Positions 9,266 to 64,000 are shown, numbered from the stretch's first letter. The stretch is DNA of 64,000 nucleotides from Chloroflexota bacterium (GCA_040389445.1 JAZJZX010000014.1:130744-194743), one strand, 5' to 3'. Numbers and translations: made by a program. The notes: generated by a model not told the origin, from the sequence alone.

Positions 9266-9409
9266 GGCCGAGGCGGCGACGACGGGAGCGTTGGTGCGTG
9301 CCTGATCGAGGATGAGGATCTCCCTGGATCAACCTTGGGGCCCGGGACCGAGGTGGTGGAGGACGGGCCCGCCGCGCGTCCTGACCCTAGGCCACGATCG
9401 CGGAGAGTG

Positions 9410-11551: not shown

Positions 11552-11783
11552 CGAGCCCGTGCCCATCGCATGGCAAATGGCAGGTAGGTATGCGGTGGGT
11601 GCTGGACGGATCGAGGGATGGGAACTCCAGGAGGGCGTGCCGGGTCGCACGACGGGCGCCTGTCCAACCGGGCGCAGGTGCCGCGCCTGACCGTAGGTGA
11701 GGCTCGCCGGGCTGTCAAACGGCCCCACGAGGCGCCCGACCAGGAGCGGCGTGTCACATTTCGGCAGCGTATCATCGGCGCCG

Positions 11784-14091: not shown

Positions 14092-14931
14092 ATGAGCGAC
14101 GGCACGGTCATCATCATCGGCGGCGCTGAGGACAAGATCCGGGACCGGATCATCCTCAATCGGTTCGTCGCCCTCGCGGGCGGCGACGAGGCGATCGTGG
14201 CCGTCATCTCGACGGCATCGTCGCTGGGTCCGGAGGCCGGCGATCGGTACCGTCAGATCTTCACCGAGCTGGGCGTGAAGACCATTCGCCCGCTCCATGC
14301 GATGACGCGGGCGCAGGCGAACGACGAAACCTTTGGGCGCGCCGTCCGCGATGCCACCGGCATCTACCTCACCGGCGGAAATCAGCTGCGCCTGTCGTCC
14401 ACGATCGGGGGCACCCGCCTGGCGGAGGCCATCCTCGAGCGATTCAAGCACGGGGCAGTCGTGGCCGGGACGTCGGCCGGGGCCTCCGCGATGTCGAGTC
14501 ACATGATCGCCTTCGGCGCCTCGGGCGCCACGCCCAAGCACCGGATGGCGGCGATTGCTGCCGGGCTGGGCGTGTTGCCGGGCGTGATCGTCGATCAACA
14601 TTTCCAGCAGCGAAATCGGCTCGGTCGGCTGCTGAGCCTGATCGCCCAGAACCCGAGCCTGCTCGGGATCGGCGTGGACGAGGATACGGCCGGCGTCGTG
14701 GGGCCGGACCACGTCCTGGAGGTGATCGGTCGCGGCAGCATCACCATCGTCGACGGGGCCGCGGCGGAGACCGACGCCTGGGACGTCCGGGGACATCGTC
14801 CGGTCATGCTGAGCGGGGTCGTCCTGCACTCGCTGCCGGCCGGCTATCGGTTCGATCTCCGACGACGACATCGCATCACCGGACCGGCACTCAAGGCTCT
14901 TCCGGGCGGCGAGGCCGCAGCATCCAGCTAG
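14092..14931 (+). CDS. cphB: Cyanophycinase CphB (peptidase S51)
   Basis: 279 aa with S51 signatures (IIGGAEDK…, TGGNQ, GTSAGA) and the size expected for cyanophycinase. It lies immediately upstream of cphA. Confidence 0.8.
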   Translation: MSDGTVIIIGGAEDKIRDRIILNRFVALAGGDEAIVAVISTASSLGPEAGDRYRQIFTELGVKTIRPLHAMTRAQANDETFGRAVRDATGIYLTGGNQLRLSSTIGGTRLAEAILERFKHGAVVAGTSAGASAMSSHMIAFGASGATPKHRMAAIAAGLGVLPGVIVDQHFQQRNRLGRLLSLIAQNPSLLGIGVDEDTAGVVGPDHVLEVIGRGSITIVDGAAAETDAWDVRGHRPVMLSGVVLHSLPAGYRFDLRRRHRITGPALKALPGGEAAASS

Positions 14932-19868: not shown

Positions 19869-19937
19869 AGTCCCGGCAGGATAGCAACGCGCCCCCGATC
19901 GAAGTCCGGTCGTCTCGTCACGCCCTACACTCCCGGC

Positions 19938-21254
19938 GTGACTACTTCCACCGCACCCGGGAGCGGCGTCAGCCCGGATGAACTCAGGGCTCTCGAAGCG
20001 ATCGTCACCGTCGGCCATCTTCGATTCCTCGCCGAGCTCGAGCGGCTCTGCAACATCGATTGCGGCAGCTACTCACCCGCAGGCGTCAACGAGGTCGCAG
20101 CGTGGGTCGAGGCTGCGTTCCGCGACCTTGGCGGCGAGGTGGAACGACGGCCGGACCCGTCCGGGCGCTACGGCGATACCGTCATCGGCACGTTCCGAGG
20201 CCGTGCCGGCGCCGGAAGCCGTGCCGGCACCGGGAACCCAGCCGTCGCCGGGAGCCGTGCCGGCACCGGAAGTCCAGCCGGCACCGGACCACGCGTCCTG
20301 CTGATCGGGCACATGGACACGGTCTTCGCCGACGGCACCGTCGCGGAACGTCCGTTCTCGATCGATGGCGACATCGCCCGCGGCGCGGGTGTGACCGACA
20401 TGAAGGGTGGGCTCCTGGCCGGAATCCATGCGCTGGCGGCTCTTCGTCAGCTGGGAGGCGGGGACTGGGCCGAGCTGCCGTTCGAACGGATCACCTACAT
20501 CGCCAATCCGGACGAGGAGATCGGCTCGCCGAGCTCCACGCCGCACATTCGTGATCTCGCCGCCCAGTCGGACCTCTGCCTCGTGCTGGAGTGCGCCCGC
20601 GCCAACGGCGATTTCGTGTCCTCCCGCAAGGGGATCGCGGATCTTCGACTGAGCGTGCACGGCCGCGCCGCCCACGCCGGTGTCGAGCCTGAGGTCGGGA
20701 GGAACGCGATCCTCGCCGGTGCCCGGATGGTCGAGCGGATCCAGGGGCTGAACGGTCGCTGGGCCGGCGTGACCGCCAACGTCGGTGTCTTCCAGTCCGG
20801 ATCCCGACCGAACATCGTGCCGGATCTGGCCAATCTCGAGGTGGACGTTCGAGGCGTCACGCGCGTGGAGCTCGACGAGGCCGTCGCCGCAATCCACGCG
20901 ATTGCCGCCGAACCGGGCGTGCCGGACGTAACCGTCGAGATCACCCAGATGGCCGGCTGGCAGCCGATGGAAAAACTCGAACGGTCCGGCCGGCTGGCCG
21001 ACCACGTGACGGCGATCGCGGGGCGGCTGGGCTTCCCGACCACCGATGTCGGGACCGGCGGCGCCTCCGATGCCAACACCACGTCCGGAATGGGCGTCCC
21101 GTCGATCGACGGCCTCGGTCCCGTCGGTGGTCGCGACCATTCACCGGACGAGTACCTCGAGATCAGCTCCATCGTCCCCCGGACGACGCTGCTCGCCGCG
21201 CTGCTCCTGGCGGCGGGACGGGACCCGGTCGTCGCGGGCTGGCGCGAACGCTGA
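19938..21254 (+). CDS. M20-family metallopeptidase (carboxypeptidase/dipeptidase-type)
   Basis: M20 signatures are present: LLIGHMDTVF, …DGDIARGAGVTDMKGG… and a dimerisation domain. The probable start is the in-frame GTG at 19938 (VTTSTAPGSGVSPDELRALEAIV…). This leaves a 69-bp divergent intergenic region with the cphA-like gene. Confidence 0.75.
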   Translation: MTTSTAPGSGVSPDELRALEAIVTVGHLRFLAELERLCNIDCGSYSPAGVNEVAAWVEAAFRDLGGEVERRPDPSGRYGDTVIGTFRGRAGAGSRAGTGNPAVAGSRAGTGSPAGTGPRVLLIGHMDTVFADGTVAERPFSIDGDIARGAGVTDMKGGLLAGIHALAALRQLGGGDWAELPFERITYIANPDEEIGSPSSTPHIRDLAAQSDLCLVLECARANGDFVSSRKGIADLRLSVHGRAAHAGVEPEVGRNAILAGARMVERIQGLNGRWAGVTANVGVFQSGSRPNIVPDLANLEVDVRGVTRVELDEAVAAIHAIAAEPGVPDVTVEITQMAGWQPMEKLERSGRLADHVTAIAGRLGFPTTDVGTGGASDANTTSGMGVPSIDGLGPVGGRDHSPDEYLEISSIVPRTTLLAALLLAAGRDPVVAGWRER

Positions 21255-51078: not shown

Positions 51079-52424
51079 GCGTGGGTATCGCCAGGCTTCG
51101 CGACGAGCCGGATGCGATCCGGAAGGGGGCAATCGACAAGGGCGAGGATCCGTCCATCGTCGAAGCCGCCCTCGAGGCGGACGCTCGCCGGCGCGCGCTC
51201 CAGGGAGAGGGCGACGTGCTGCGGGCCGAGCGCAATACTGCTTCGAAGGCGATCGGCGAGGCGATCAAGGGCGGCGCGCGGCCCGACGGGTCCGAGGTGG
51301 CCGCGCTGCGCGCCCGCTCCACGGAGATCGGCGAGCGACTCGCCACCATCGACACCGAGCTGGCTGAGGTCGAGGCGACGTTCGAGGACCTCCTGCTCCG
51401 CATCCCCAACCCCGCCGAGACGGACGTTCCGGTCGGTGGGGAGGACGCCAATGTCACCCTCCGGACGTGGGGCGAGCAGCTCCCGCATGACCAGCCGCTC
51501 GAGGGCGAGATCGGCGCGGATGCACCGGCCGGCGGCACCACGTGGCAGCGCCGGCCGCACTGGGAAATCGCCGAACACCTCGGGATGATCGACCTCGCCC
51601 GCGGGGCCAAGATCGCCGGCTCCGGCTTCCCGGTCTACAAGGGCACGGGTTCGGCGCTCCAGCGCGCCCTGATCATGTGGTTCCTCGACGTGCATACCCG
51701 CGAGAACGGGTTCACCGAGGTGTGGCCTCCGATCGTGGTCAACCAGGCTTCAGCACGGGGCACCGGCCAGATTCCCGACAAGGAAGACCAGATGTACGTG
51801 GTCTCGCGCGACGACCTGTACTTGGTCCCGACCGCGGAGGTGCCCGTCACGAACCTTCATCGAGACGAGATCCTCGAGGCGACCGAGCTGCCGATCCGCT
51901 ACGCCGCGTATACACCCTGCTTCCGGCGGGAGGCGGGCGCCGCCGGAAAGGACACGCGCGGCATCCTGCGGGTCCACCAGTTCGACAAGGTCGAGATGGT
52001 CCTGTTCGAGCGGCCGGAGGCCTCAACCGAGGCGCTCGAGTGGATGACGGGCGTGGCGGAGGACCTCCTCCGCCGGCTTGGGCTGGCCTATCGCGTCCTG
52101 CTCATGGCGACGCGCGAGATGGGCTTCACGCAGGCACGCAAGTACGACATCGAGGTCTGGTCTCCCGGTGTCGAGCGCTGGCTGGAAGTGAGCTCCTGCT
52201 CCAATTTCAAGGACTTCCAGGCGCGCCGCATGGCGGTGCGGTACCGGCCCGAGCCCGGTGCGAAGCCGGAGCTGGTCCATACGCTCAACGGCTCGGGCCT
52301 TGCCCTTGCGCGGATCGTCGCGGCGATCCTGGAGACGTATCAGCGTCCCGACGGGTCAGTCGATATTCCGGCCCCGCTCCGGCCGTACATGGGGATCGAC
52401 TGGATCCCGGCCCCGCCGGCCTGA
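51075..52424 (+). CDS. serS: Seryl-tRNA synthetase
   Basis: The N-terminal coiled-coil arm is MSVGIARLRDEP… Class II motifs are …FRREAGAAGKDTRGILRVHQFDKVE… The start shares ATGA with the lysK stop. Confidence 0.9.
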   Translation: MSVGIARLRDEPDAIRKGAIDKGEDPSIVEAALEADARRRALQGEGDVLRAERNTASKAIGEAIKGGARPDGSEVAALRARSTEIGERLATIDTELAEVEATFEDLLLRIPNPAETDVPVGGEDANVTLRTWGEQLPHDQPLEGEIGADAPAGGTTWQRRPHWEIAEHLGMIDLARGAKIAGSGFPVYKGTGSALQRALIMWFLDVHTRENGFTEVWPPIVVNQASARGTGQIPDKEDQMYVVSRDDLYLVPTAEVPVTNLHRDEILEATELPIRYAAYTPCFRREAGAAGKDTRGILRVHQFDKVEMVLFERPEASTEALEWMTGVAEDLLRRLGLAYRVLLMATREMGFTQARKYDIEVWSPGVERWLEVSSCSNFKDFQARRMAVRYRPEPGAKPELVHTLNGSGLALARIVAAILETYQRPDGSVDIPAPLRPYMGIDWIPAPPA

Positions 52425-52500
52425 CCGCCCATCGGCATCGCCGCTCGCCCGCCGGACCGCCCATCGGCATCACCGCCCGGACCGCTGCTATTCTCGTGTC

Positions 52501-52587
<87 letters not shown>

Positions 52588-52863: not shown

Positions 52864-53526
52864 ATGAAGCACTCTGCGATTCGAGCCCTCGTCGCGATGC
52901 TTCTAGCTGCCTTTTTGCCTTCGGGCCGAGTTCCGATCGCGAGCGCATATCACGATGCCGCGACGACCAAATACTTCGGTTCCTCTTAGAGCCATATCTG
53001 CGACACCACACCACTGAGCCAGTGCGTCGCCAACGATGCGGCGCATCGCTACACGAGAGGCGCCGGGCTCGACGACCTTCGCTGGGCCGCTACCGAGCGC
53101 GGCTTCATCATTTGGGGCGGGAACAGTAACATCAATGTCAGCACGCTTGGGCCTCAGTGGGACGTTTTCGTGTACGAAGTCAACAGTCCCCTTGTGAATG
53201 CGTTTGCATGGGGTCAATGTGTCCCCGAAGGACCCTACGGCGGGCAGTTTGGAAGCTCGGATGCGGCCCACACTCGATGGTGCTCCCCCTCCATCATCTA
53301 CTGGAACACGTGGTCAGCGGCAGCGAACAAGGTCAGTACGGTGCAGAAGCGAAACTACATCGGGTGTCATGAATCCGGGCACACGGTGGGACTCAGGCAT
53401 CGCACCGTGGCCCACACGACGTGCATGACGACTCCTGCGAGCGGCCCATCGGATCCGAACTCGGTTGTCCCGAGTGTCGAGAATCCCTCGTCCGATGACT
53501 ACACCCGGATCAATCTGCACGATTAG
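52864..53526 (+). pseudogene. Secreted metzincin-type zinc metalloprotease (snapalysin-like; HESGHTVGLRH = HExxHxxGxxH) interrupted by a single in-frame TAG at 52987-52989
   Basis: ATG at 52864 (GGAGAG upstream) starts a classic signal peptide MKHSAIRALVAMLLAAFLPSGRVPIASA. The same frame continues through the amber codon into the catalytic domain (the ORF-track entry at 53170 is in the same frame as 52723). Confidence 0.6.
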
Positions 53527-53539
53527 GCGGAGGAAGACC

Positions 53540-54301
53540 ATGGCCAATCCCTTCGGGTCGCTACTGAGTCCAGCCAGCATCGCTCGCGCACGCATCTTGT
53601 TCGTGGTCGTCTCGGTTGCAGTTTCGGCGTGCTACGGTCCAGCCGCGGTCGCGCCCAATTCGTCGGACCAGCCGCCAGAAGCCTCGGACCAGCCGCCAGA
53701 AGCCTCGGACCAGGCGATCCGGTACCCCGCGGATAAGATGTGGGCGTTTCTGGCCTCGACGCCCGACCTTCAGCGCGGCTTTGATTCGCTCGACAAAGCT
53801 GTCATCGGATCTGACGCGGTTGTCGTCGGCCGCTTCGTCGGTCTTGAGCGAGGTCAGTCGTACTCGGTTCCCGGCGCGGCGTTTTCGTCGTGGAATGCCA
53901 TTGCTCTCATCCAACCCGATGAGGTGATCGGCGGCAAGGCCAATCTCGATGCCCGCGGATTGCTCCGGATCGAATTCGTTCTTGTCGTGGGGGGCAAGGA
54001 GTATCCAGACGTGGAGTTCGCCAACCTCTCGGCCTCGATCCCTGGGGGACCCGCCCTCCTCTTCCTCGTAACGATGGCAACCTACTTCGATCGCGCTGGA
54101 GGCGATATCCCGGAAGGTTTCGAAGCGTTGTATTCAACAGACATCTACCGCACCGTCGGCGGAGATGGCGCCATCCGCATCGAAAACGGCGTCTTGGAAC
54201 CGCCCTCGTACATCGATGGATGGCCCCTTGCCTTGGATGGGATCGCGATATCAGACGTGGAGAAAACCATCCGCGCCGTGAAGAGGAACGTAGCGCCGTA
54301 G
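53540..54301 (+). CDS. Putative lipoprotein / secreted protein with a tandem DQPPEAS repeat
   Basis: ATG at 53540 lies 6 nt after GGAGGA. The signal peptide ends in a lipobox-like AVSAC. A perfect 21-bp DNA repeat (tcggaccagccgccagaagcc x2 plus a partial copy) at 53663-53712 encodes SDQPPEASDQPPEASDQ. Confidence 0.5.
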   Translation: MANPFGSLLSPASIARARILFVVVSVAVSACYGPAAVAPNSSDQPPEASDQPPEASDQAIRYPADKMWAFLASTPDLQRGFDSLDKAVIGSDAVVVGRFVGLERGQSYSVPGAAFSSWNAIALIQPDEVIGGKANLDARGLLRIEFVLVVGGKEYPDVEFANLSASIPGGPALLFLVTMATYFDRAGGDIPEGFEALYSTDIYRTVGGDGAIRIENGVLEPPSYIDGWPLALDGIAISDVEKTIRAVKRNVAP

Positions 54302-54558
54302 CAGGTCGAATCACCCGCGCCAACCTCGCTCGACCATACGAATAGTTGTCGATCAGCGAAGTCGTCGGGAAGGGGATGGCGGACGAGCACGGCTCAGCGT
54401 GGCAAGGGATCGGGAGCGAGGGACGCCCGTCGGCCAGGCCGGCACTTGTCGCGGCGAGATGCCACCGAATCGAGGGTGACTATCACTGACGTCTCGCGAT
54501 CCGGGCGCATTTATGCGAACCTGTCGCGAGGAGCCGGGTGGGCACACGCAGGGCTGGC

Positions 54559-54617
54559 CCTGTCTTGAAAACAGGCGGGCGAAAGCCCCGTGGGTTCGAA
54601 TCTCACCCTCTCCGCCA
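54559..54617 (+). repeat. Partial copy of tRNA-Ser (anticodon stem through CCA). An attR-like direct repeat, not a functional tRNA.
   Basis: 57/59 nt identical to 52528-52586. The 5' half of a tRNA (acceptor 5' strand, D-arm) is absent upstream. Confidence 0.7.
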
Positions 54618-54655
54618 GGACCAGCGCCCGGTTCCACGAACGGAAGGACACTCCG

Positions 54656-55015: not shown

Positions 55016-55978
55016 TCAACTCGGGCGGAACTCGGCGAGGATGGCGGCAGACCGCACTGGATCGGGGAACGAGGCCTGGGTTCCCGGGCGCGTGACGCTG
55101 TCCGAGGCGCACGCGAGGCCGAGCCGCACGGCATCCAGCTCGTTCAGCCCGAGGGCGAGGCCCACGGCGAATGCCCCGACGAACGCATCGCCGGCACCGG
55201 ATGTGTCGACCGCCGCGACGACACGCGCCGGGAGACGCGTCACCGCGCCGTCCACCCCCACGAGGGCCGCGCCGCGAGACCCGAGCGTGACGATCAGCCG
55301 CGTCGCGACCCGGTCGGCGAATGCGAGCATCGCGGCCTCGGTCACCTCGCCGGCCGCGCCGGACAGGATCCCGAACTCCACTTCATTTGGGACCAGCCAG
55401 CCCGTGAAGCCCAGGAGCTCCGGCGAGATCGGCGCGGCCGGCGCCGGATTGAGGATCGTGATCGCACCGCGTCCGCGGGCCGCCGCAAATCCTGCGGCCG
55501 TCACGGCTTGCGGGATCTCCAACTGCCCGACGCAGACATCAACCCGCGGCACCGCGTGCACCGCGCCGTCCGCGTGCTGCGGCGTGACCAGATCGTTGGC
55601 GCCGGGGACCACGATGATGCGGTTCGTGCCGTCCGCCTCGACCCAGATCGGGGCCACGCCACTGGATCCGGCCACCCGCATCACGCCGGAGGCGTCGATC
55701 CCGAGGCGCTCGAAGTTCTCGACCGTCATCGCAGCGTAGGCGTCGTCCCCGAGGGCACCGATGAATGAGACCTCGGCACCGAGGAGCCGCGCCATGACGG
55801 CCTGGTTGGCCCCCTTGCCGCCAAAGCCCGACTGGAATCGGTCGCCGATCACGGTCTCGCCCGGGCCGGGTGCGCGTCGCGCATAGGCGATCAGGTCGAT
55901 GTTCATGCTTCCGACCACCGCCACTGCAGCGGGTCGAGCCTGCGATCCTCCCACGCATCCCTCCGAGTGCCTCGCCAT
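55016..55978 (-). CDS. PfkB-family carbohydrate kinase, ribokinase-like
   Basis: …VVGSMNIDL…GGKGANQAV…, and a C-terminal …DTSGAGDAFVGAF… (ATP-binding DTxGAGD) motif. The start was chosen at the ATG at 55978; the ORF is open to 56026. Confidence 0.75.
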   Translation of the reverse strand: MARHSEGCVGGSQARPAAVAVVGSMNIDLIAYARRAPGPGETVIGDRFQSGFGGKGANQAVMARLLGAEVSFIGALGDDAYAAMTVENFERLGIDASGVMRVAGSSGVAPIWVEADGTNRIIVVPGANDLVTPQHADGAVHAVPRVDVCVGQLEIPQAVTAAGFAAARGRGAITILNPAPAAPISPELLGFTGWLVPNEVEFGILSGAAGEVTEAAMLAFADRVATRLIVTLGSRGAALVGVDGAVTRLPARVVAAVDTSGAGDAFVGAFAVGLALGLNELDAVRLGLACASDSVTRPGTQASFPDPVRSAAILAEFRPS

Positions 55979-56070
55979 GCCCGCCGACCGGGCGCCGTGC
56001 GAAAAACCTTGACGGCATTGTGTCATCTGGGCTACGGTTTCTGCAATCGTTGTCAGTAACCGTTGCCGCG

Positions 56071-57129
56071 TTGGGAGGGACTCCGCTGGCCGCGCCCCGC
56101 CGTACGACCACGATCACCGATGTCGCAGACCGCGCAGGTGTCTCGGCATCCACCGTCAGCCGCCATCTCCGCGGCGACACGGTCCGCAACGCGGTGACCA
56201 TCGACGATGCCATCCAGACCTTGGGATTCCGCCCGAGTCGGGCGGCCCAGGCGCTGAAGTCGGGCCGCACGGGTGCCATCGCCCTGGTCGTGCCGGACAT
56301 CACCAATCCGTTCTTTGCCGCGGTCGTGCGGGGTGCCGATTCCCTCTCGTCGGCCGAGGGCTACACCGTCTTCCTCTCGAACACCGACGAGAGTCCGGAG
56401 CGCGAGGCCGACGTGCTGGAGGACCTCCTCGGGCGGGTGGACGGAATCATTCTCGGTCCGGCTTCGGAGGACGATCAGAACCCGCTCGTCGTTCATCGAG
56501 CCGGCGTACCGCTTGTGTTCATCGATCGCGAGATCCGCGGATCGGGCGTCGACTTCGACACCGTTCTGGTCGACAACCAGGGCGGCGCACGCCAGGCCGT
56601 CGAGCACCTGGTGGGTCTCGGGCATCGAAGGATCGCGATCGTCAGCGGCCAGCTGGAATCGACGCCCGGTCGCGAGCGCTACGAAGGATTCTCCGCTGCC
56701 ATCGAGGCAGCCGGACTCGACCTTCCGGACGCCTATGTCCAGTTCGGTGCCTTTCGCGAGCGCGAGGCCTATCAGTCGATGCTGCGCCTCCTCGCCTTGC
56801 CCGAACCACCGACCGCGGTCTTCGTCGGCAACAACCTGATGACCATCGGCGCACTCCATGCCGTTCGCGACATGGCGATCCGCGTTCCAGACGACCTGTC
56901 GATCGTCGGCTTCGACGACCACGCCTTTGCCGACCTCCTGGCCCCGCCCCTGACCGTGGTGGCCCGACCGATGGAAGAGCAGGGTGTCCTGGCGATGCGC
57001 CTCCTCCTCAACCGCATCGATGGCCGCGGTGATGCGTCGCCTCGCCGGATCGTCCTCGACACGACGCTCACCGTTCGCGGCTCCACCTCGGCACCCGCCG
57101 TCCCGCAGCCCCGGACCCGGCGTCGATGA
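56071..57129 (+). CDS. LacI-family transcriptional regulator
   Basis: HTH …TITDVADRAGVSASTVSRHLRG… followed by a periplasmic-binding-protein-like sugar-binding domain. The start is uncertain (TTG at 56071 chosen; the ORF is open from 55870). Confidence 0.7.
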   Translation: MGGTPLAAPRRTTTITDVADRAGVSASTVSRHLRGDTVRNAVTIDDAIQTLGFRPSRAAQALKSGRTGAIALVVPDITNPFFAAVVRGADSLSSAEGYTVFLSNTDESPEREADVLEDLLGRVDGIILGPASEDDQNPLVVHRAGVPLVFIDREIRGSGVDFDTVLVDNQGGARQAVEHLVGLGHRRIAIVSGQLESTPGRERYEGFSAAIEAAGLDLPDAYVQFGAFREREAYQSMLRLLALPEPPTAVFVGNNLMTIGALHAVRDMAIRVPDDLSIVGFDDHAFADLLAPPLTVVARPMEEQGVLAMRLLLNRIDGRGDASPRRIVLDTTLTVRGSTSAPAVPQPRTRRR

Positions 57130-57177
57130 GCGCCCGGACGGCCATCACGCAGCAGCCCGAATCCTGGAGTCACCGCG

Positions 57178-58173
57178 ATGCATGAATCAGCGTTCTGGAC
57201 GACCCCGGTTCTGGCCTCGGTGCGGCCGGTGGTCGAGCATGCCCGGCATGTCACGACCCATCCGGAAGCGGTCCGATCCGTCGCCGGCTGGATGGCCTAC
57301 GAGGAGTTCGGGCTTCCCGATGGGATGCTTCAGTTCGACCTCGGTTCGGATCTCGACCTGCTCACCGACACGATCATGTTCGTCTCCCTGCTGAACTTCG
57401 CCTTCACGGACTTCACGACGCGCGTGAAGTACGAAGTGGACTACTTCGGAAAGCGCTGGACCGACAGCGAGGGGATGTTCGCGAACATCCATGAGGCGAT
57501 CGTCACGGGCGTCCCGATCCTGGACGGCGCATGGATGGCGAAGGTCGATCGTGCCGGTCTGGAGCGCCTCTTCCGCGGCACCATCGAGATGCCGATGCTC
57601 GACGAGCGCGTGCAGGTTCTCAATGACGCCGGCGCGGTCCTCCTCGCTCGCTACGGGGGCCGCTTCCACAACTGGGTGCAGGCCTGTGCGCCGGCGATGT
57701 ACGCCGGGGGCGACGGCCTGCTCGAACGTCTCGTCACGGAATTCCCGCGCTTCAATGACGTGTCGACGTACGACGGACATCAGGTCAGGTTGTTCAAGCT
57801 GGCCCAGCTCAGCCTCTGGTCGCTCCACGCCATCCACAGCCGGTTGGGTGGAATCGCGATCCGCGACCTGTCGAACATGACGGCCTTCGCCGATTACATC
57901 GTCCCGGTCGGCCTGCGCGTGATGGGGATCACGTCCTACACCCCCGAGCTCGAGGCACGCATCAATCGCGGCGACATCATCCACCGCGACTCGGCCGAGG
58001 AGATCGAGATTCGGGCCCACACCCTCTACGCGACGGCGCTCCTCACCGAGGAGATCAACAAGCTCCGGCCGTCCGACATGCAGCTCGTCATCCCGCAGGT
58101 CGACTACCGGTTCTGGAAGACCTATCACGCCACCTTCTGGCCGCACCACCTGACCCGGACGGTCATGTATTGA
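57178..58173 (+). CDS. Queuosine-salvage family protein (DUF2419 / Qng1-like, queuosine 5'-phosphate N-glycosylase/hydrolase family)
   Basis: 331 aa. Segments …LLTDTIMFVSLLNFAFTDF… and …KYEVDYFGKRWTDSEGMFANIHEAIVTGVPILD… match the conserved DUF2419 blocks as I recall them (…DTLNFSFW…, …Y.G..YSGYW.L…A…G.PI…). No search was done. Confidence 0.6.
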   Translation: MHESAFWTTPVLASVRPVVEHARHVTTHPEAVRSVAGWMAYEEFGLPDGMLQFDLGSDLDLLTDTIMFVSLLNFAFTDFTTRVKYEVDYFGKRWTDSEGMFANIHEAIVTGVPILDGAWMAKVDRAGLERLFRGTIEMPMLDERVQVLNDAGAVLLARYGGRFHNWVQACAPAMYAGGDGLLERLVTEFPRFNDVSTYDGHQVRLFKLAQLSLWSLHAIHSRLGGIAIRDLSNMTAFADYIVPVGLRVMGITSYTPELEARINRGDIIHRDSAEEIEIRAHTLYATALLTEEINKLRPSDMQLVIPQVDYRFWKTYHATFWPHHLTRTVMY

Positions 58174-58279
58174 GCGGCCCGTCAACCGGCTGTCGACCGA
58201 TGTCGGCGGCCGGAGCCCAGGTCACGAGAGGAGGGAATAGCTGAGAGTCTTGAGGGGGGCTTTGTTCGATTGATCAAGC

Positions 58280-58311
58280 GCCACGCGCGCCGAATGTGTG
58301 CGCAGCGTGGC
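58280..58311 (+). promoter_or_regulatory. Stable GC-rich hairpin in the 165-nt leader of the ECF S-component gene (gccacgcgcgc…gcgcagcgtggc), ending 6 nt before the SD. Candidate riboswitch or attenuator element.
   Basis: An 11-12-bp stem with a 9-nt loop, read from the sequence. GGGAGGG is at 58317-58323 and the ATG at 58338. Confidence 0.3.
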
Positions 58312-58337
58312 CAGAGTGGGAGGGTTCGGAAACAACC

Positions 58338-59039
58338 ATGACTGCTGCGGCAACCACCAGGGGATCCGCGAGTTCGCGGATCCCGCTCACGCTGGTCGTC
58401 ACCCTCATTCCGGTGGCGGCAGCCCTGAACATCGTTGGCGGAACGATCAACACGGCGCTCAAGCTCCCGACGTTCCTGGACATGATCGGCACCGCCGTCG
58501 CCGCCATCGTCCTCGGCCCGTGGTGGGGAGCTCTCGTCGGTGTCATCACGAACGTCGGTGGCTCGCTCATCAACGGGCCGATCGGGATCCCGTTCGCGCT
58601 CGCGAATGTCGCCGGCGCCCTCGTCTGGGGCTACGGCGTCCGCTCGTGGGGCCTCGGTGGCTCCTCGATCAAGTACTTCGGTCTGAACGTGCTCGTCGCG
58701 CTGGCGGTCTCCGCCGTGGCTGCGCCGATCGTGATCTTCGTCTTCGGCGGGGCAACCGGCCACTCGTCCGACGCGATCACGGCAGCATTTGCGCAGGCCG
58801 GCCAGGATCTGATCACGGCCGTCTTCGCGTCGAACGTCATCGTCTCGCTGGCCGACAAGATCATTGCCGGCTACGTCGCGCTGGCGATCATCCAGGCGCT
58901 CCCGACGCACCTCACGTCGTCGCTCGTGCTGCCTCGCCAGGAAGGCATGGGCCGCATCCTCGTGGCCGTCGTCGGCGTCGTGATCGGCGTCGCCTTCCTC
59001 CTCGTCTACACCCTGATCCTGGCCCCCAAGCCGGCCTGA
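58338..59039 (+). CDS. ECF transporter substrate-specific (S) component
   Basis: 233 aa with 6 transmembrane helices and small, Gly/Ala-rich helices typical of ECF S components. It lies immediately upstream of EcfA-A'-T. Confidence 0.7.
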   Translation: MTAAATTRGSASSRIPLTLVVTLIPVAAALNIVGGTINTALKLPTFLDMIGTAVAAIVLGPWWGALVGVITNVGGSLINGPIGIPFALANVAGALVWGYGVRSWGLGGSSIKYFGLNVLVALAVSAVAAPIVIFVFGGATGHSSDAITAAFAQAGQDLITAVFASNVIVSLADKIIAGYVALAIIQALPTHLTSSLVLPRQEGMGRILVAVVGVVIGVAFLLVYTLILAPKPA

Positions 59040-59072
59040 TCGAACGCGTCTTGAATGGAGATTGAAACCATC

Positions 59073-59291
59073 ATGGAAGAGCATTCAGGTCGGACTGTCG
59101 GGCCTCGCGAGGGCCTCGGCGCCGGGATCATTGCGCTCGGCATCCTCTCGGCGGTGCTGCCCAGCGTCGTCGATCAACTTCCCTCGGTGACGAACGGCGG
59201 GAGCGCCGCGTTCGTGCTGTACGGCATGAGCGTGCTCATCGGCATCTTCGTCATCATCGCCGGGATCATGTCCTTCATCGTCAAGGACTGA
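59073..59291 (+). CDS. Small (72 aa) two-helix membrane protein of unknown function
   Basis: A hydrophobic ORF between the S and A components. The alternative ATG at 59055 would add 6 aa. Confidence 0.35.
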   Translation: MEEHSGRTVGPREGLGAGIIALGILSAVLPSVVDQLPSVTNGGSAAFVLYGMSVLIGIFVIIAGIMSFIVKD

Positions 59292-59384
59292 CCGGACCCG
59301 CGCTCGTCAACGCAGGCGTCGGTCCCCGTCGGGCAGGGAGTCCCGGCGGGGACCGGTGCCGTTCGTCGTGCAACTGAGGACCCC

Positions 59385-60290
59385 GTGGCAACTGAACCGT
59401 ATATCGCGATCGCAGATCTTGGCTTTTCGTACGCACAGGGCACCCGTCCGGCGCTGACCGGGATCACCCTCACTGTCGAGCAGGGCGAATACGTCGGGGT
59501 GATCGGCCTCAACGGCGCCGGCAAGACCACCCTGGGCCTGTGTCTCAACGGCATCATCCCGCACATGTTGATGGGCGAGCAGACGGGAACGATTGCTGTG
59601 GCCGGCAAGGACCCCGGCGTCGTTCCCGTGCGCGAAATGGCACGCATCGTCGGGATGGTCTTTGACAACCCCGAATTTCAGATGAGCCAGGTCACGGCCG
59701 CCGAGGAGGTGGCCCTGGGCCTCGAAAATCTCGGTGTTCCCTACGCGGACATGGTCGTTCGGGTTGCCGAAGCTCTCGCGATCGTGGGCCTGACTGGTTA
59801 CGACGAGCGGTCGCCGATGGGCCTCTCGGGCGGCCAGCAACAGCGGCTCGCCATTGCCTCAACCCTGGCCATGAAACCATCGATCCTGTTCATGGACGAG
59901 CCGACATCGAATCTCGACCCGATCGGCAAGGAGGAGGTCTTCGAGATCGCCCGCCGACTGAACCGGGATGAGGGCATGACGATCATCGTCGCGGAGCACG
60001 AGGTCGAGGTCCTCGCCGAGTACGCGGATCGCATCATCGTCCTCCACGAGGGGCGGATTGCCCTTCAGGGCACGCCGACCGAGGTCTTCTCCCAGGTGGA
60101 CACGATGGCGGCGCTCGGACTCCGGGTGCCCCAGGTGACCGAGTTCGCGTATCGCATCGCCGGGTTGGGCGCTGGCCCGGTCGCCGATCCCGGCGCGCGC
60201 GCCGGAACTGCCCCGGGCCTGACGAGCCCAGTCGCCCAGCTGCCGGTGAAGCTGTCCACAGCGATCGAGTGGGTCGGGGCGCGGGGATGA
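59385..60290 (+). CDS. ecfA1: ECF transporter ATPase component EcfA (ABC ATP-binding protein)
   Basis: Walker A GLNGAGKTT, signature LSGGQQQR, Walker B ILFMDEP. GTG at 59385 follows GAGGA. Confidence 0.8.
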   Translation: MATEPYIAIADLGFSYAQGTRPALTGITLTVEQGEYVGVIGLNGAGKTTLGLCLNGIIPHMLMGEQTGTIAVAGKDPGVVPVREMARIVGMVFDNPEFQMSQVTAAEEVALGLENLGVPYADMVVRVAEALAIVGLTGYDERSPMGLSGGQQQRLAIASTLAMKPSILFMDEPTSNLDPIGKEEVFEIARRLNRDEGMTIIVAEHEVEVLAEYADRIIVLHEGRIALQGTPTEVFSQVDTMAALGLRVPQVTEFAYRIAGLGAGPVADPGARAGTAPGLTSPVAQLPVKLSTAIEWVGARG

Positions 60291-61168
60291 CCGAGACGCA
60301 GAACGGCCTGCCTGGATCCCCAGGCGCCGGCCCAATTCTCTCCGTCCGCAACGCACGCTACGTCTACCCTCGCGGCGACGTGGTGGCGCTCGAGGAGATC
60401 TCCGTCGATGTCCCCGTCGGCCAGAGCCTCGGGATCGTCGGCCAGAACGGATCCGGCAAGACGACGCTCACCAAGCTCATGAACGGGCTCCTGCGGCCGA
60501 CCTCCGGCAGCGTGATCGTCGACGATCTGGACACGGCAAGGCACCCCGTCCAGGTACTTGCCGCGCATGTCGGATACGTCTTCCAGAATCCCAACCACCA
60601 GCTCTTCGCGCCGACCGTTGCGGACGAACTGGCCTTCGGCCCGCGCAACATCGGCGTTCCCGAAGCGGAGATCGCGGAGCGCGTGGCCGAGGCAACCGAG
60701 TTCTTCCGCCTGGGCGACATCCTGACGCTCCACCCGTATCGAATCAGCTTCCCGTTGCGGAAACTGGTCGGGATCGCGTCGATTTTCACGATGCGGCCCA
60801 AGGTCTTCATCCTCGACGAGCCGACGACGGGTCAGGATCACCGCACGACGAACACCATCAACCGGCTCATCCACGAGCTCGTGGATCGAGGGTCCACGGT
60901 GATCTGCGTGGCCCACGACATGCCGCTGCTCGCGGATGTTTCCGAGCGACTCATCGTCATGTGGAACGCACGCCTGATCGCCGATGGGACGCCTCGCGAA
61001 GTCTTCGCCGATCGAGCGGTCATGGAGCGGACGCATCTGGCTCCACCCCAGATCACCCAGTTCTCGATGCAGCTGCCGGGCCGTGAAGGTCGCGCTCCGG
61101 CGCTCTCGCTTGATGAGCTGGTGGCCGAATATCGCACTCCCGGCCGGCTCGCCGGAAAGGAGGCCTAG
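60287..61168 (+). CDS. ecfA2: ECF transporter ATPase component EcfA' (second ABC ATPase)
   Basis: Walker A GQNGSGKTT, Walker B ILDEPT. The start shares ATGA with the ecfA1 stop. Confidence 0.8.
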   Translation: MTETQNGLPGSPGAGPILSVRNARYVYPRGDVVALEEISVDVPVGQSLGIVGQNGSGKTTLTKLMNGLLRPTSGSVIVDDLDTARHPVQVLAAHVGYVFQNPNHQLFAPTVADELAFGPRNIGVPEAEIAERVAEATEFFRLGDILTLHPYRISFPLRKLVGIASIFTMRPKVFILDEPTTGQDHRTTNTINRLIHELVDRGSTVICVAHDMPLLADVSERLIVMWNARLIADGTPREVFADRAVMERTHLAPPQITQFSMQLPGREGRAPALSLDELVAEYRTPGRLAGKEA

Positions 61169-61171
61169 GCC

Positions 61172-62065
61172 ATGCAGGGGATGAACGTCTCGGTCACCCA
61201 CGTCCGCGGGACCTCGTGGCTCCATCGCATGAGCCCGATCGCCAAGCTCAGCTGGCTCCTGGCGATCATGGCCTTCGCCTTTGCCTCGTACAACCCGTGG
61301 CCGCTTTTCGCGATCGCGCTTGCCGGCATCGGCATGGCCGCGACCGCCGGCATCCTCAAGCCGATCCTTCGCATCCTCCTCGTGTTCGCACCCGTGACGG
61401 CCTCGATGATCGTCATCCAGGCCATCGCCCCGGCGATCTGCCAGAACACCTGCACGCCCGCGACGACGCTCGGACCGCTGACCCTCTACCAGGAGGGGAT
61501 CTCGCACGGGCTGTCGCTGAGCGCGCGGGTCCTGTCCATGGAGATCATTGCGATTGTCGCTCTCGTGACGACGAACCCGTCCGACCTTTTTTCAGCCTTC
61601 GCACGGTTGCGGGTTCCGTACATCCTGAACTTCATGGTGTCGATGACCCTCCAGCTCATCCCGGTCCTGACCCGTGAGGTTCAGATCGTCCTGTCCGCGC
61701 AGCGTTCGAGAGGCATGAAGAGCACGGGCTTCGGATCGGTGATCCCGTCGTTCGTGCCGGTCTTCGCCGGAGCGTTCGAGCGGGTCCAGCAGCTCTCGAT
61801 CAGCCTGGAATCGCGTGCCTTTGGATCCACCGGCAAGAAGACTTCGTACCGTCAGATCGAGTTCGGAACGCTCGACAGGATCATCGCGGTCGCGGGCCTG
61901 GTGGTCGGCTTGGTCGGGACCGTGGTCGGCCTCGTCTTCTGGAGTGCCGGTCAGACACCGGTGATCATCCTTCCGGTCTGGCTGACCGTGACCGTCTTCC
62001 TCATCGCTGCGGTGATGTTCGTCGGGGTCGTCATCGCGGCCCTGGTCGCAATCGCTCGGTCCTAG
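61172..62065 (+). CDS. ecfT: ECF transporter transmembrane (T) component EcfT (CbiQ family)
   Basis: 297 aa with ~5-6 transmembrane helices. The conserved …SAQRSRG… (coupling-helix Arg motif) is present. GGAAAGGAGG lies upstream of the ATG. Confidence 0.8.
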   Translation: MQGMNVSVTHVRGTSWLHRMSPIAKLSWLLAIMAFAFASYNPWPLFAIALAGIGMAATAGILKPILRILLVFAPVTASMIVIQAIAPAICQNTCTPATTLGPLTLYQEGISHGLSLSARVLSMEIIAIVALVTTNPSDLFSAFARLRVPYILNFMVSMTLQLIPVLTREVQIVLSAQRSRGMKSTGFGSVIPSFVPVFAGAFERVQQLSISLESRAFGSTGKKTSYRQIEFGTLDRIIAVAGLVVGLVGTVVGLVFWSAGQTPVIILPVWLTVTVFLIAAVMFVGVVIAALVAIARS

Positions 62066-62074
62066 GAGAGTTCG

Positions 62075-62923
62075 ATGGCAGTGTTCGAGGCGGACGGCCG
62101 CCTGCATCACATCGCGATCAGATCCGGCGACGTCGGTCGCTACGTCCTGCTGCCGGGCGATCCCGGTCGCGTGGAACGGATCGCCCGGCGGTTCGACGAC
62201 GCGCATTTCGTGGCCTCGCACCGCGAGTACGTCACGTGGACCGGAACGCTGGACGGGGTGAAGGTCTCGTGCACCTCGACCGGCATCGGCTGTCCCTCCA
62301 CGGCCATCGCCGTCGAGGAGCTGGCTGCCGCTGGCGCGGATACGTTCATTCGCGTCGGCACGGCCGGTGCCATGCAGCCCGAGATCCGGACGGGGGACAT
62401 CGGTGTCATCAGCGGGGCGATCCGTGACGAGGGGACGAGCCGTCACTATCTCCCGCTGGAGTTCCCCGCGGTCGCCGACATCGACGTCACGGTCGCGCTG
62501 CGCGAAGGGGCGCGGAACGCCGGTCACCGGTTCCGGGTCGGCATCGCCCAGTCGAAGGATTCGTTCTACGGCCAGCACGAACCCGAACGCATGCCGATCG
62601 CGGCGGAACTCGGTCGACGCTGGGACGCCTGGACGGCGGGTGGTGCGATCTGCTCGGAGATGGAGGCCGCGACACTCTTAATCGTGGCGTCGGCCCTGCG
62701 TGTCCGCGCCGGTGGCGTGATGCTGATCTACCAGAACATGGACCATCGTCAGCCCACTGCTGAGGAGCGTGCCGCGGGCAACGTCGAGCACGTCATCGAC
62801 GCAGCGATCTCCGGCCTCCGCCAGCTCATCGCGGATGACCGGGCGCGGGCCGACGCCGCCCTTGCCGGCGCTGCCGGCGCTGCCGACGCTGCCGGCGCTG
62901 CCGGCGCTGCCGACGCGTCGTAG
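62075..62923 (+). CDS. PNP/UDP family-1 nucleoside phosphorylase (uridine/purine nucleoside phosphorylase-like), copy 1, with an Ala/Gly/Asp-rich C-terminal tail
   Basis: …CTSTGIGCPSTAIAVEEL…FIRVGTAGA… and …ICSEMEAA… are the phosphate/ribose-binding motifs of hexameric nucleoside phosphorylases. The tail AGAAGAADAAGAAGAADAS is encoded by an 18-bp tandem repeat at ~62860-62920. Confidence 0.75.
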   Translation: MAVFEADGRLHHIAIRSGDVGRYVLLPGDPGRVERIARRFDDAHFVASHREYVTWTGTLDGVKVSCTSTGIGCPSTAIAVEELAAAGADTFIRVGTAGAMQPEIRTGDIGVISGAIRDEGTSRHYLPLEFPAVADIDVTVALREGARNAGHRFRVGIAQSKDSFYGQHEPERMPIAAELGRRWDAWTAGGAICSEMEAATLLIVASALRVRAGGVMLIYQNMDHRQPTAEERAAGNVEHVIDAAISGLRQLIADDRARADAALAGAAGAADAAGAAGAADAS

Positions 62924-62934
62924 GTCATCAGCAC

Positions 62935-63735
62935 GTGGCCGACGACGTTCAGCACCACGTTGCGCTGCGCCCCGGCGATGTCGGGCGCTACGTCCTGCTT
63001 CCCGGCGACCCGGGGCGCTGCGAGCGCATGGCCCGCCGTTTCGACGACCCCCGCCTCGTGGCAAGGAACCGCGAGTACGAGACCTGGACCGGAACGCTCA
63101 ACGGCGTGCCGGTATCGGTGACCTCCACCGGGATCGGCTGCCCATCGGCGGCGATTGCCGTCGAGGAGCTGGTCCGCTGCGGGGCCGATACGTTCATTCG
63201 GGTCGGCACGGCCGGAGGCATGCAGCCCGGGATGCAGACCGGTGAGCTGGCGATCGTGACGGCGGCGATCCGCGACGAAGGGACCACCAGCCACTACCTT
63301 CCGATGGAGTTCCCTGCCCTTGCGGACCTGGACGTGGTGCTCGCGCTCCGCGAGGCCGCCCGCCGGACCGGGGCGCGAGCGCGCGAGGGTGTCAGCCAGT
63401 CCAAGGACTCGTTCTACGGCGAGCTCGAGCCCGGGCGGATGCCCATCGCTCCGAATCTCCACGAGCGTTGGGGCGCGTTCATCGCCGGCGGGGCCATCTG
63501 CTCGGAGATGGAGGCTGCCGCGATCTTCATCATCGCCTCGATCCTGCGGGTCAGGGCGAGCGGCATCATGGCCTGCGTGGGCAATCCGGCGATGTCCGAG
63601 GCCGAGGCGACGGCCTCGATGGCGACCTTCTCGCTGGACCCCGTGATCGACACCGCCGTCGAGGCCCTCCGTGTCCTCATCGAGCGAGATCGCGGCTCGG
63701 ACGCACCGGAGGCCGGCGCGCCCGCTCGGGCATGA
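62935..63735 (+). CDS. PNP/UDP family-1 nucleoside phosphorylase, copy 2 (tandem paralogue)
   Basis: About 60% identical to copy 1 over the core (…GDVGRYVLLPGDPGR…TSTGIGCPS.AIAVEEL…FIRVGTAGGMQP…ICSEMEAAA…). GTG start at 62935. Confidence 0.75.
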   Translation: MADDVQHHVALRPGDVGRYVLLPGDPGRCERMARRFDDPRLVARNREYETWTGTLNGVPVSVTSTGIGCPSAAIAVEELVRCGADTFIRVGTAGGMQPGMQTGELAIVTAAIRDEGTTSHYLPMEFPALADLDVVLALREAARRTGARAREGVSQSKDSFYGELEPGRMPIAPNLHERWGAFIAGGAICSEMEAAAIFIIASILRVRASGIMACVGNPAMSEAEATASMATFSLDPVIDTAVEALRVLIERDRGSDAPEAGAPARA

Positions 63736-63811: not shown

Positions 63812-64000
63812 ATGAGTTACGGGGAAGTCCTTCGAGCGCCAGGTGCCCGCCTCCTGATCCTCTTCGGGTTGATCGGCCGGGCGCCGTCAGCGATGATTCC
63901 GCTCGCCCTGGTGCTGGCGATCGTGGCCCTGTCCGGTTCCTATGGGATCGGCGGGCTGGCGGCGGCGGCCTACACGCTGGCCGGTGCCGCGGCCGGCCCG
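63812..64000 (+). CDS. Probable MFS transporter, N-terminal fragment (continues beyond window)
   Basis: ATG at 63812. The frame is open to the window end (MSYGEVLRAPGARLLILFGLIGRAPSAMIPLALVLAIVALSGSYGIGG…), typical of MFS helix 1-2. Confidence 0.4.
   Translation, partial: MSYGEVLRAPGARLLILFGLIGRAPSAMIPLALVLAIVALSGSYGIGGLAAAAYTLAGAAAGP

Follow-up and report, generated by a model that had tools for sequence, protein, structure and literature searches.

A divergent Qng1-like protein encoded with an ECF importer, nucleoside phosphorylases and a ribokinase-like kinase in a predicted nucleoside-catabolic cluster of a Chloroflexota bacterium

A 64,000-nucleotide stretch of DNA (GCA_040389445.1 JAZJZX010000014.1:130744-194743, referred to at its full length as the window) from a high-GC (0.65-0.72) Chloroflexota metagenome-assembled genome (MAG) contains, at positions 55016-63735, a gene cluster in which a divergent member of the queuosine (Q) 5'-phosphate N-glycosylase family Qng1 (Q_salvage or DUF2419, PF10343) appears to form part of a nucleoside-catabolic module with its own, uncharacterised importer belonging to the energy-coupling factor (ECF) class. 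A first-pass annotation, made from the sequence alone, had listed ten genes here and proposed a salvage locus for queuosine or its base queuine. Pfam and NCBIfam profile searches of the window proteins, together with gene calls taken on the source contig, confirm the identities and coordinates of all ten (Table 1): a ribokinase-like PfkB kinase and a divergently transcribed LacI-type regulator, the Qng1-like protein, the S component, a 72-aa membrane protein, the ATPases EcfA and EcfA' and the T component of an ECF transporter, and two tandem nucleoside phosphorylases, here called UdpA and UdpB. A major facilitator superfamily (MFS) transporter gene starts at about 63812 and continues past the end of the window, and homologues of its product (30-38% identity, full length) occur in the related clusters of Acidimicrobiia and Nanopelagicales described below. 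The kinase gene was called at 55016-55906 within an open reading frame (ORF) that reaches 56026; the called gene is probably too short at its start, an ATG at 55978 retaining the first beta-strand. The S gene is preceded by a 164-bp intergenic gap (58174-58337), and a promoter and terminator consensus scan of the locus gave no usable sigma-70 promoter or terminator. Between the small-protein gene and ecfA lies a GC-rich inverted repeat with 19-nt arms (59315-59360) and no T-run; the hairpin region 59292-59384 folds with a minimum free energy of -49 kcal/mol, but the DNA is GC-rich and the z-score is no lower than -1.9, and the repeat may be an intra-operon stabiliser or may be meaningless.

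Table 1. Features of the cluster in the window, followed by ECF loci of related genomes (coordinates of the respective locus).
Feature	Position	Strand	Basis
Ribokinase-like PfkB kinase	55016..55978	-	Pfam PfkB, E 7e-55
Putative LacI-family operator TGCAATCGTTGTCA	56042..56055	.	Divergent kinase/lacI control region
LacI-family repressor (RbsR/CytR/PurR/UriR-like)	56050..57129	+	LacI HTH and Peripla_BP_1/3/4
Predicted Qng1-like HhH-fold N-glycosidase, divergent PF10343/DUF2419 subfamily	57178..58173	+	PF10343, E 2e-53
ECF S component, related to 'CD3073 family'	58338..59039	+	NF045596 and PF12822, both sub-threshold
72-aa membrane protein, two predicted helices	59073..59291	+	Position conserved in ECF module
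ECF ATPase EcfA	59385..60290	+	ABC_tran; TIGR04520 ECF_ATPase_1, 250 bits (cut-off 315)
ECF ATPase EcfA'	60287..61168	+	ABC_tran; TIGR04521 ECF_ATPase_2, 223 bits (cut-off 330); start from gene call
ECF T component	61172..62065	+	CbiQ PF02361, E 1e-25
'UdpA', S. pyogenes (UP2)-type uridine phosphorylase	62075..62923	+	TIGR01718, 290.6 bits
'UdpB', Udp paralogue with altered base site	62935..63735	+	TIGR01718, 267.2 bits
MFS_1 transporter gene, 5' end	63812..64000	+	Gene call and Pfam, locus L081; 413 aa on source contig
Small membrane protein in ECF loci without DUF2419	L085 10702-10902; L086 10699-10905; L087 10723-10968
ECF and kinase loci	L085 10001-14446; L086 10001-15693

The Qng1-like protein matches PF10343 with 182 bits (cut-off 25), so that its earlier assignment to DUF2419 holds under a profile search, matches Qng1 of Sphaerobacter thermophilus (StQng1, PDB 7U07) with E 8e-42, and is 100% identical to an NCBI entry named 'MAG: queuosine salvage family protein [Chloroflexota bacterium]'. 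Foldseek searches with its AlphaFold2 (AF2) model (predicted local distance difference test, pLDDT, 90.3) return the Qng1 crystal structures as top matches, with a template modelling (TM) score of 0.85 and 32% identity for 7UK3, and helix-hairpin-helix (HhH) DNA glycosylases follow far behind; identity to StQng1 is 28-33% across alignments. When the residue roles in catalysis and recognition assigned to StQng1 by Hung et al. 2023 (PMC9881137) are transferred by alignment, the catalytic core of Qng1 (human QNG1, C9orf64) is found in the window protein, including the HhH Lys and Asp and the neighbouring Tyr (StQng1 K199/D231/Y232, window K207/D239/Y240), the ribose-stacking Phe and Tyr, the C-terminal Tyr, which reaches into the active site with its carboxylate, together with its partners (E267/H316/Y323, window E275/H324/Y331, Y331 being the last residue), the guanine-edge Asp (D298, window D309) and the stacking Trp (W302, window W313). 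K207, D239, Y240, E275, D309, W313, H324 and Y331 are invariant in the subfamily formed by the window protein and its close homologues. StQng1 itself is inactivated by a tag at the C-terminus.

By contrast, the residues by which queuosine itself is recognised in StQng1 are replaced. The pocket for the cyclopentenediol or 7-substituent (W48, H53, Y93, W94 and W299) becomes G49, D54, S97, E98 and Y310, the D69-N72-D207 proton relay becomes S70, N73 and S215, and the phosphate-binding K233 becomes I241. The D69/D207 relay uses the secondary amine of queuosine and is described as strictly conserved in Qng1/QNG1 (PMC9881137); in the subfamily, the two equivalent positions are variable and non-acidic. 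The Ile in place of K233 is invariant, so that the charge is lost, and the St-type R200 and R317 are likewise changed, to L208 and L325; of the other phosphate contacts, R80 is replaced conservatively by K84 and Q306 by H317. The pocket, relay and phosphate-Lys changes are fixed over 116 subfamily members, which share new invariants of their own (D96, W214, H317, R191 and R270, plus L208 and L325 replacing Arg). Of 91 diverse PF10343 representatives, 19 carry D69, 26 carry D207 and 28 carry K233, and in a second alignment D69 and D207 occur together in only 16 of 92; PF10343 is therefore heterogeneous, with the Q enzymes characterised so far as a minority within it. The acidic D96 and E98 are placed where StQng1 contacts position 7 and the 7-aminomethyl group, and the pair could protonate N7 of a true purine or could equally pair with a cationic 7-substituent. 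In MutY, a general-acid Glu protonates the purine N7. To judge from these alignments and models, the Qng1-like protein shares the PF10343 fold and is probably not an isofunctional queuosine-5'-phosphate hydrolase.

Gene neighbourhoods were compared with one genome per species scanned, which gave 284 relatives, the best 80 of which (55-66% identical) were analysed; the counts below are lower bounds, many loci being incomplete, notably the Nanopelagicales-like ones. The subfamily (55-76% identical) is present in Chloroflexota, in Acidimicrobiia (sponge symbionts among them), in Nanopelagicales-like Actinomycetota and in Acidobacteriota, and its gene is found in nucleoside-catabolic clusters with few exceptions. 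In Chloroflexota (n=15), the Qng1-like gene is accompanied by an orthologue of the ribokinase-like gene in 14 loci, by Udp in 11 and by the ECF S gene in 6. Acidimicrobiia-type loci (n=26) contain the kinase (22), LacI (12), a Bmp/PnrA binding protein (13), permeases (14), inosine-uridine nucleoside hydrolase (IUNH) (13) and MFS (13), and Nanopelagicales-like loci (n=21) contain the kinase (7), permeases (20), Udp (14), IUNH (14) and a nucleoside-deoxyribosyltransferase-like gene (17); DeoC and aldehyde dehydrogenase are each found in 13 loci, nearly all of them Nanopelagicales-like. In both actinobacterial groups, a Bmp/PnrA ATP-binding cassette (ABC) importer (Pfam Bmp, E 2e-51 and 8e-57) replaces the ECF system, and this exchange suggests one class of substrate for both importers. 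Acidobacteriota loci (n=18) contain a TonB-type outer-membrane protein (14), IUNH (15), another PfkB kinase (13) and a ureide-permease/RbsU-like carrier (14), and the orthologous kinase does not accompany the Qng1-like gene. All 18 Acidobacteriota orthologues carry a twin-arginine translocation (Tat) signal (RRxFLxGL; L030-L072, e.g. L047 9839-10975), N-terminal extensions are seen on IUNH in L047, and the set looks like a periplasmic nucleoside-hydrolysis system, in which the exported enzymes would have to work without an ATP-dependent step. The co-occurrence that the first-pass annotation had proposed to examine is conserved: the same families flank the orthologue in 80 genomes from four phyla, with gene order varying and one transporter exchanged for another, and the module is coherent. 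In contrast to these nucleoside-catabolic clusters with their Tat-exported versions, three orthologues of the validated St type (from Nitrolancea, Thermomicrobiaceae and a Chloroflexota MAG) are solitary, their neighbours being unrelated genes and none of them nucleoside genes. A cytochrome P450 gene lies near the cluster in 18 of the 80 loci (Nanopelagicales and Chloroflexota, e.g. L049 17816-18991), and one also occurs in L086 (14065-14763).

The regulator, whose presence upstream of the module had been noted in the first-pass annotation, contains an N-terminal LacI helix-turn-helix (HTH) and a periplasmic-binding-protein-like effector domain (Peripla_BP_3; Pfam, E 1e-38), and its best NCBIfam matches (RbsR, CytR, PurR, CcpA and UriR) are all under the equivalog cut-offs. 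Its own control region contains an operator of the TGNAANCGNTNNCA type, TGCAATCGTTGTCA, the sole TGNAANCGNTNNCA match within the 64 kb, which sits within a 38-bp inverted repeat. In Actinomycetota loci the corresponding position is taken by orthologues of the regulator (45-63% identical), and the operator motif recurs, likewise placed, in loci of Nanopelagicales (as TGCAATCGTTACCA and similar) and of Acidimicrobiia (as TGAAACCGTTTTCA), so that both the regulator and the putative operator, which is of the catabolite-responsive element (cre)/RbsR-like kind, are conserved across phyla.

The ECF transporter is a complete dedicated (group I) set, as had been supposed, in which the genes for the S component, the CbiQ-family T component and two ECF-type ABC ATPases are grouped. 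The S component matches PF12822 weakly (23.6 bits, cut-off 30.7), its only NCBIfam match is NF045596 'CD3073 family' (112.7 bits, cut-off 180), and no QueT, QrtT or other S-component model in Pfam and NCBIfam matches it at E<=0.01. Sequences of solved structures give only weak FolT-like matches (E 2e-4). Its AF2 model is of moderate confidence (pLDDT 65.8), and the top 23 PDB matches of this model in Foldseek are all ECF S components (FolT, RibU, ThiT, PanT and BioY) at 12-23% identity. The model thus points to an S-component fold in a protein that appears to belong to no characterised family, RibU, ThiT and BioY included. The 72-aa protein has no Pfam match; all complete module copies that were seen (L001, L007, L013, L016, L085, L086 and L087) have a gene for a protein of 66-81 aa in the interval from S to EcfA, with identity of 33-80%. 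The 72-aa protein is accordingly best described as a predicted, conserved extra subunit of the ECF module, in a position reminiscent of the auxiliary subunits CbiN and NikL of metal ECF systems. The unit of S, small protein, A, A' and T is also found where the DUF2419 gene is missing: UdpA, UdpB and MFS come after it in L087, and an orthologue of the kinase (58% identical) comes directly after it in L085 and L086. In these last two loci neither a glycosidase nor a phosphorylase is close by, and one may ask whether the kinase acts on what the ECF system imports. The ECF-kinase unit of L085 and L086 lies just downstream of split NAD synthetase genes (CN_hydrolase and NAD_synthase). The ECF, Udp and kinase sub-modules thus recombine, always with one another.

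The two phosphorylases differ at the base site. UdpA exceeds the cut-off of the uridine phosphorylase model TIGR01718 (280.3), which UdpB does not reach (Table 1), and UdpA matches Streptococcus pyogenes uridine phosphorylase (UP; 3QPB, UP2) with E 2e-80, sharing its K162, Gln and H169 signature and carrying the motif SKDSFYGQHEPERMP. K162, the Gln and H169 form the uracil-binding signature. UdpB retains all phosphate- and ribose-binding residues and, of the signature, K162. In 23 of 23 type-B sequences the uracil-binding Gln is replaced by Glu and the His by Val, Ile or Leu (GE[VIL]EP replacing GQHEP), the replacement of His169 in the window UdpB being Leu. Type B (L001, L005, L007, L013, L016, L022, L035-L049, L065, L073, L076, L079, L080 and L087) always stands beside type A in tandem pairs, and loci with a single Udp carry type A. 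We know of no characterised enzyme with the Glu/aliphatic pattern of UdpB, and a literature search found no paper on a natural cytidine phosphorylase of the UdpB type or on a Glu-type Udp paralogue. The substitutions suggest that UdpB may have a new base specificity.

The best NCBIfam match of the kinase is ribokinase (TIGR02152, 270 bits, under the cut-off of 299.65), and all 14 of its PDB matches at E<=1e-20 are ribokinases. All of the Escherichia coli RbsK residues N14, D16, G41, G42, K43, N46, A98, I100, I110, E143 and D255 (reference sequence confirmed against 1RKD) are kept in the window kinase; these are the ribose-contact and lid residues of the 1RKD structure. The Asn of the N-x-D motif (GSMNID) is kept in the window kinase and in seven others among 48 orthologues. 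The orthologues (50-63% identical) adjoin the DUF2419 gene in most loci. Our best guess from these matches is a ribokinase, in line with the suggestion in the first-pass annotation that the kinase may recycle the sugar.

Taken together, these observations suggest, with somewhat better than even confidence, a LacI-controlled operon for the scavenging of ribonucleosides, in which the Qng1-like enzyme acts on a guanine-type nucleoside and the kinase captures the ribose. The ECF importer (S, the small extra subunit, EcfA, EcfA' and EcfT) would bring in one or more ribonucleosides; UdpA would phosphorolyse uridine; UdpB, active-looking and with its base-contacting Gln changed to Glu, would take another nucleoside; and the Qng1-like glycosidase would hydrolyse a guanine-type nucleoside (less probably a 5'-nucleotide) that the phosphorylases refuse. 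The divergent ribokinase-like kinase would convert the released ribose to ribose-5-phosphate, and the MFS protein would move base or nucleoside. Across the related clusters, a single slot would be taken by one of three importer types (an ECF system, a Bmp-ABC system, or periplasmic enzymes combined with a receptor in the outer membrane), and enzymes that cleave the glycosidic bond with complementary specificities would act side by side. Both the periplasmic versions and the disappearance of three basic residues from around the phosphate site speak against a need for a kinase step before the Qng1-like enzyme. The gene families, the conserved module, the operator and the residue pattern are observations; we infer the substrates, the way in which the three cleaving enzymes share the work, and a purpose in bulk nutrition and not in micronutrient supply.

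Several points weigh against this scavenging operon, some of them in favour of a rival. ECF systems usually import micronutrients and not bulk nutrients; the residue equivalences come from sequence alignment and an AF2 model, not from a ligand-bound structure; and the function proposed for the subfamily enzyme rests on comparative inference. A 7-deazaguanine nucleoside would still fit the active site, since the guanine-edge D309 and the stacking W313 are kept, and in PMC11130926 a ureide permease encoded beside a Q_salvage gene of Acidobacteriota was able to transport preQ0 and preQ1 in E. coli but did not transport Q, the cluster in question (DeoC, IUNH, ureide permease and a 369-aa Q_salvage protein) having the same composition as the Acidobacteriota loci described here. 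Dedicated salvage of queuosine or of another 7-deazaguanine nucleoside (preQ1 or preQ0 riboside), with import by the ECF system, formation of the 5'-phosphate or recycling of ribose by the kinase, and release of the base by the Qng1-like enzyme for tRNA-guanine transglycosylase (TGT), would accord with these points, with PF10343 membership and the conserved catalytic core, with a pairing of D96 and E98 with the cationic amine of preQ1 or Q, with the transport of Q precursors by some ECF S components (QueT and QrtT), and with a Q kinase that is still to be identified (no 'queuosine kinase' paper was found in a literature search). We nevertheless regard it as unlikely. The cyclopentenediol pocket and the D69/D207 relay are absent and the phosphate Lys is replaced throughout the subfamily, the S component matches neither QueT nor QrtT, and the same permease did not carry Q. 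The intergenic leader 58174-58337, for which the first-pass annotation had proposed an Rfam scan, contains no riboswitch at gathering score or at E<=5: the gathering-score Rfam scan of the whole window gave only tRNA-Ser, a scan of 55800-59500 at E<=5 gave two sub-threshold chance matches and no preQ1 riboswitch, and the leaders 5' of orthologous S genes do not align with one another. Pfam recognises no TGT or Que family among 31 other gene-like ORFs of the window that were searched, which show housekeeping genes only, and a motif search for Tgt, QueA and QueF in the window and about 88 related loci, a crude test, gave spurious matches only; no tgt or que gene was thus recognised in the window or within ~10 kb in the 80 genomes. 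The regulator is of the sugar/nucleoside LacI type, the neighbours in orthologous clusters are bulk-catabolic (multiple IUNH, Udp, DeoC, aldehyde dehydrogenase and the Bmp ABC importer), the Acidobacteriota copies are exported, and genes of the validated Qng1 type occur in a different, stand-alone context. The first-pass interpretation is thus supported in part, for a module of riboside uptake and cleavage under a LacI regulator, and is not supported in its specific reading as queuosine or queuine salvage.

The kinase is the source of a second group of objections. With TIGR02152 (cut-off 299.65) each of its orthologues falls just short, at 267-284 bits, and 40 of the 48 have Met in the place of N14 (motif GSTMID), so that a nucleoside 5'-kinase feeding a nucleotide glycosidase, as in the logic of PsuK/PsuG, is possible; the ECF and kinase loci without a glycosidase fit the logic of a nucleoside kinase too. 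The corresponding scheme, in which a nucleoside 5'-kinase is followed by a Qng1-like nucleoside-5'-phosphate N-glycosidase that releases base and ribose-5-phosphate from a non-Q purine nucleotide, gains from the preference of StQng1 and human QNG1 for the 5'-monophosphate, from the kinase and glycosidase genes being the tightest pair in cytoplasmic loci, from the kinase standing alone after the ECF module in L085 and L086, and from K84 and H317, which could still bind phosphate. It is improbable to much the same degree as 7-deazaguanine salvage: the St-type K233, R200 and R317 are aliphatic in the subfamily, the Acidobacteriota enzymes are predicted to be periplasmic with no orthologous kinase alongside, the window kinase keeps all the RbsK ribose and lid residues and has little room for a base, and IUNH-bearing clusters need a ribokinase anyway. 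A chance co-location of ordinary, unrelated genes, with DUF2419 having no functional link to the others, draws on the 164-bp gap that precedes the S gene and on the failure to recognise a sigma-70 promoter or a terminator, features that leave the operon putative; we consider it very improbable and reject it on the synteny across four phyla, with the same families beside the orthologue in varied gene orders and with transporter swaps, a conserved operator, and ECF, Udp and kinase sub-modules that recombine always together.

Under the preferred reading, ribonucleoside scavenging, a close known system is the uriR-rbsK1-uriT-uriH operon of Corynebacterium glutamicum for uridine and ribonucleoside utilisation, which likewise places a LacI-type repressor in one regulated unit with a ribokinase, an importer of nucleosides and an enzyme that cleaves them. 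The window regulator matches NCBIfam UriR with 184 bits and the IUNH of a Planktophila cluster matches UriH with 335 bits, both below the equivalog cut-offs. The importer of the uri operon is an MFS protein, whereas it is ECF here and Bmp-ABC in Actinomycetota, and the cleaving enzyme is an IUNH hydrolase, whereas a Qng1-like glycosidase and two Udp paralogues are found here. The PsuK/PsuG (YeiC/YeiN) pair of pseudouridine kinase and pseudouridine-5'-phosphate glycosidase also has a PfkB kinase gene beside a glycosidase gene, and its logic would match if the 5'-phosphate were needed; however, the glycosidase folds and families are unrelated, and the window kinase scores 270 bits against ribokinase and 32 bits against pseudouridine kinase. 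With the salvage of Q precursors (QueT/QrtT, QPTR/YhhQ, QueK and QueL; Yuan et al. 2019, Quaiyum et al. 2024) the locus has in common a dedicated ECF importer beside a nucleoside-cleaving enzyme of a Q-linked family, but it lacks QueK (IUNH), QueL, a preQ1 riboswitch, linkage to tgt and a QueT/QrtT match, and the earlier remark that the arrangement is unlike the textbook YhhQ/QueK/QueL one is borne out. The Bmp/PnrA-NupABC importers occupy the same cluster slot in Acidimicrobiia and Nanopelagicales and differ in architecture, the window containing no Bmp protein. In the study of Quaiyum et al. 2024 (PMC11130926), all IPR019438 proteins were treated as Qng1, PF02608 (PnrA-like) proteins were found to cluster with Qng1 and QueK, and PF12822 proteins with QueK only. 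The literature search found no paper that separates this PF10343 subfamily, none on an ECF system beside a Qng1 homologue, and none that mentions CD3073.

Directly upstream of the cluster, tRNA-Ser(tga) (52501-52586) follows immediately after serS, and a 95% identical copy of its 3' 63 nt (52525-52587) lies at 54556-54618. Enclosed by the two copies is a lower-GC segment (0.636) of about 2 kb with an HExxH-motif ORF (53170-53526) and a 278-aa ORF (53465-54301), in which no integrase ORF was recognised; the copies look like attL and attR of a decayed islet integrated at the tRNA. The serS-tRNA interval contains a 32-nt tandem duplication (52414-52477, 88% identity), and a 21-nt tandem repeat (53652-53693) in the 278-aa ORF encodes a repeated PEASDQ peptide. 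Farther away lie two adjacent large minus-strand ORFs (1095 and 572 aa, in 2248-7250) with good coding statistics and no Pfam match at E<=1e-8, a GlgE/branching-enzyme glycogen block (7250-11728), genes for cyanophycinase (Peptidase_S51, 14092-14931) and cyanophycin synthetase (14966-17794), and a second Mur-ligase-like gene (18114-20018) on the opposite strand.

Databases label every PF10343 protein, the window protein included, 'queuosine salvage protein' or 'queuosine 5'-phosphate N-glycosylase'. If the queuosine/7-deazaguanine reading is true, the adjacent kinase becomes a candidate for the queuosine kinase. If instead the subfamily has another substrate, thousands of these annotations mislead, as do reconstructions of the Q pathway built on the presence of 'Qng1', and the neighbourhood-based transporter hunt of PMC11130926, with its 'unexpected' preQ0/preQ1 carrier result, is also affected; two further novelties, the ECF S family and UdpB, would be indicated. 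The widest form of this reading, which we offer tentatively and at somewhat less than even odds, is that PF10343 is not a single queuosine-salvage family and includes a large, uncharacterised subfamily of HhH-fold enzymes that hydrolyse a ribonucleoside (or nucleotide) of guanine type other than queuosine, accompanied by a nucleoside-importing ECF system with a small subunit and by a Gln-to-Glu switch in UdpB that may confer a new base specificity, e.g. for cytidine. Such enzymes would form a new class in nucleoside catabolism in very abundant freshwater, soil and sponge-associated bacteria, and acI/Nanopelagicales, Limnocylindria and other Chloroflexota, sponge-associated Acidimicrobiia and soil Acidobacteriota would feed in this way on ribonucleosides, cleaving them in the cytoplasm or in the periplasm.

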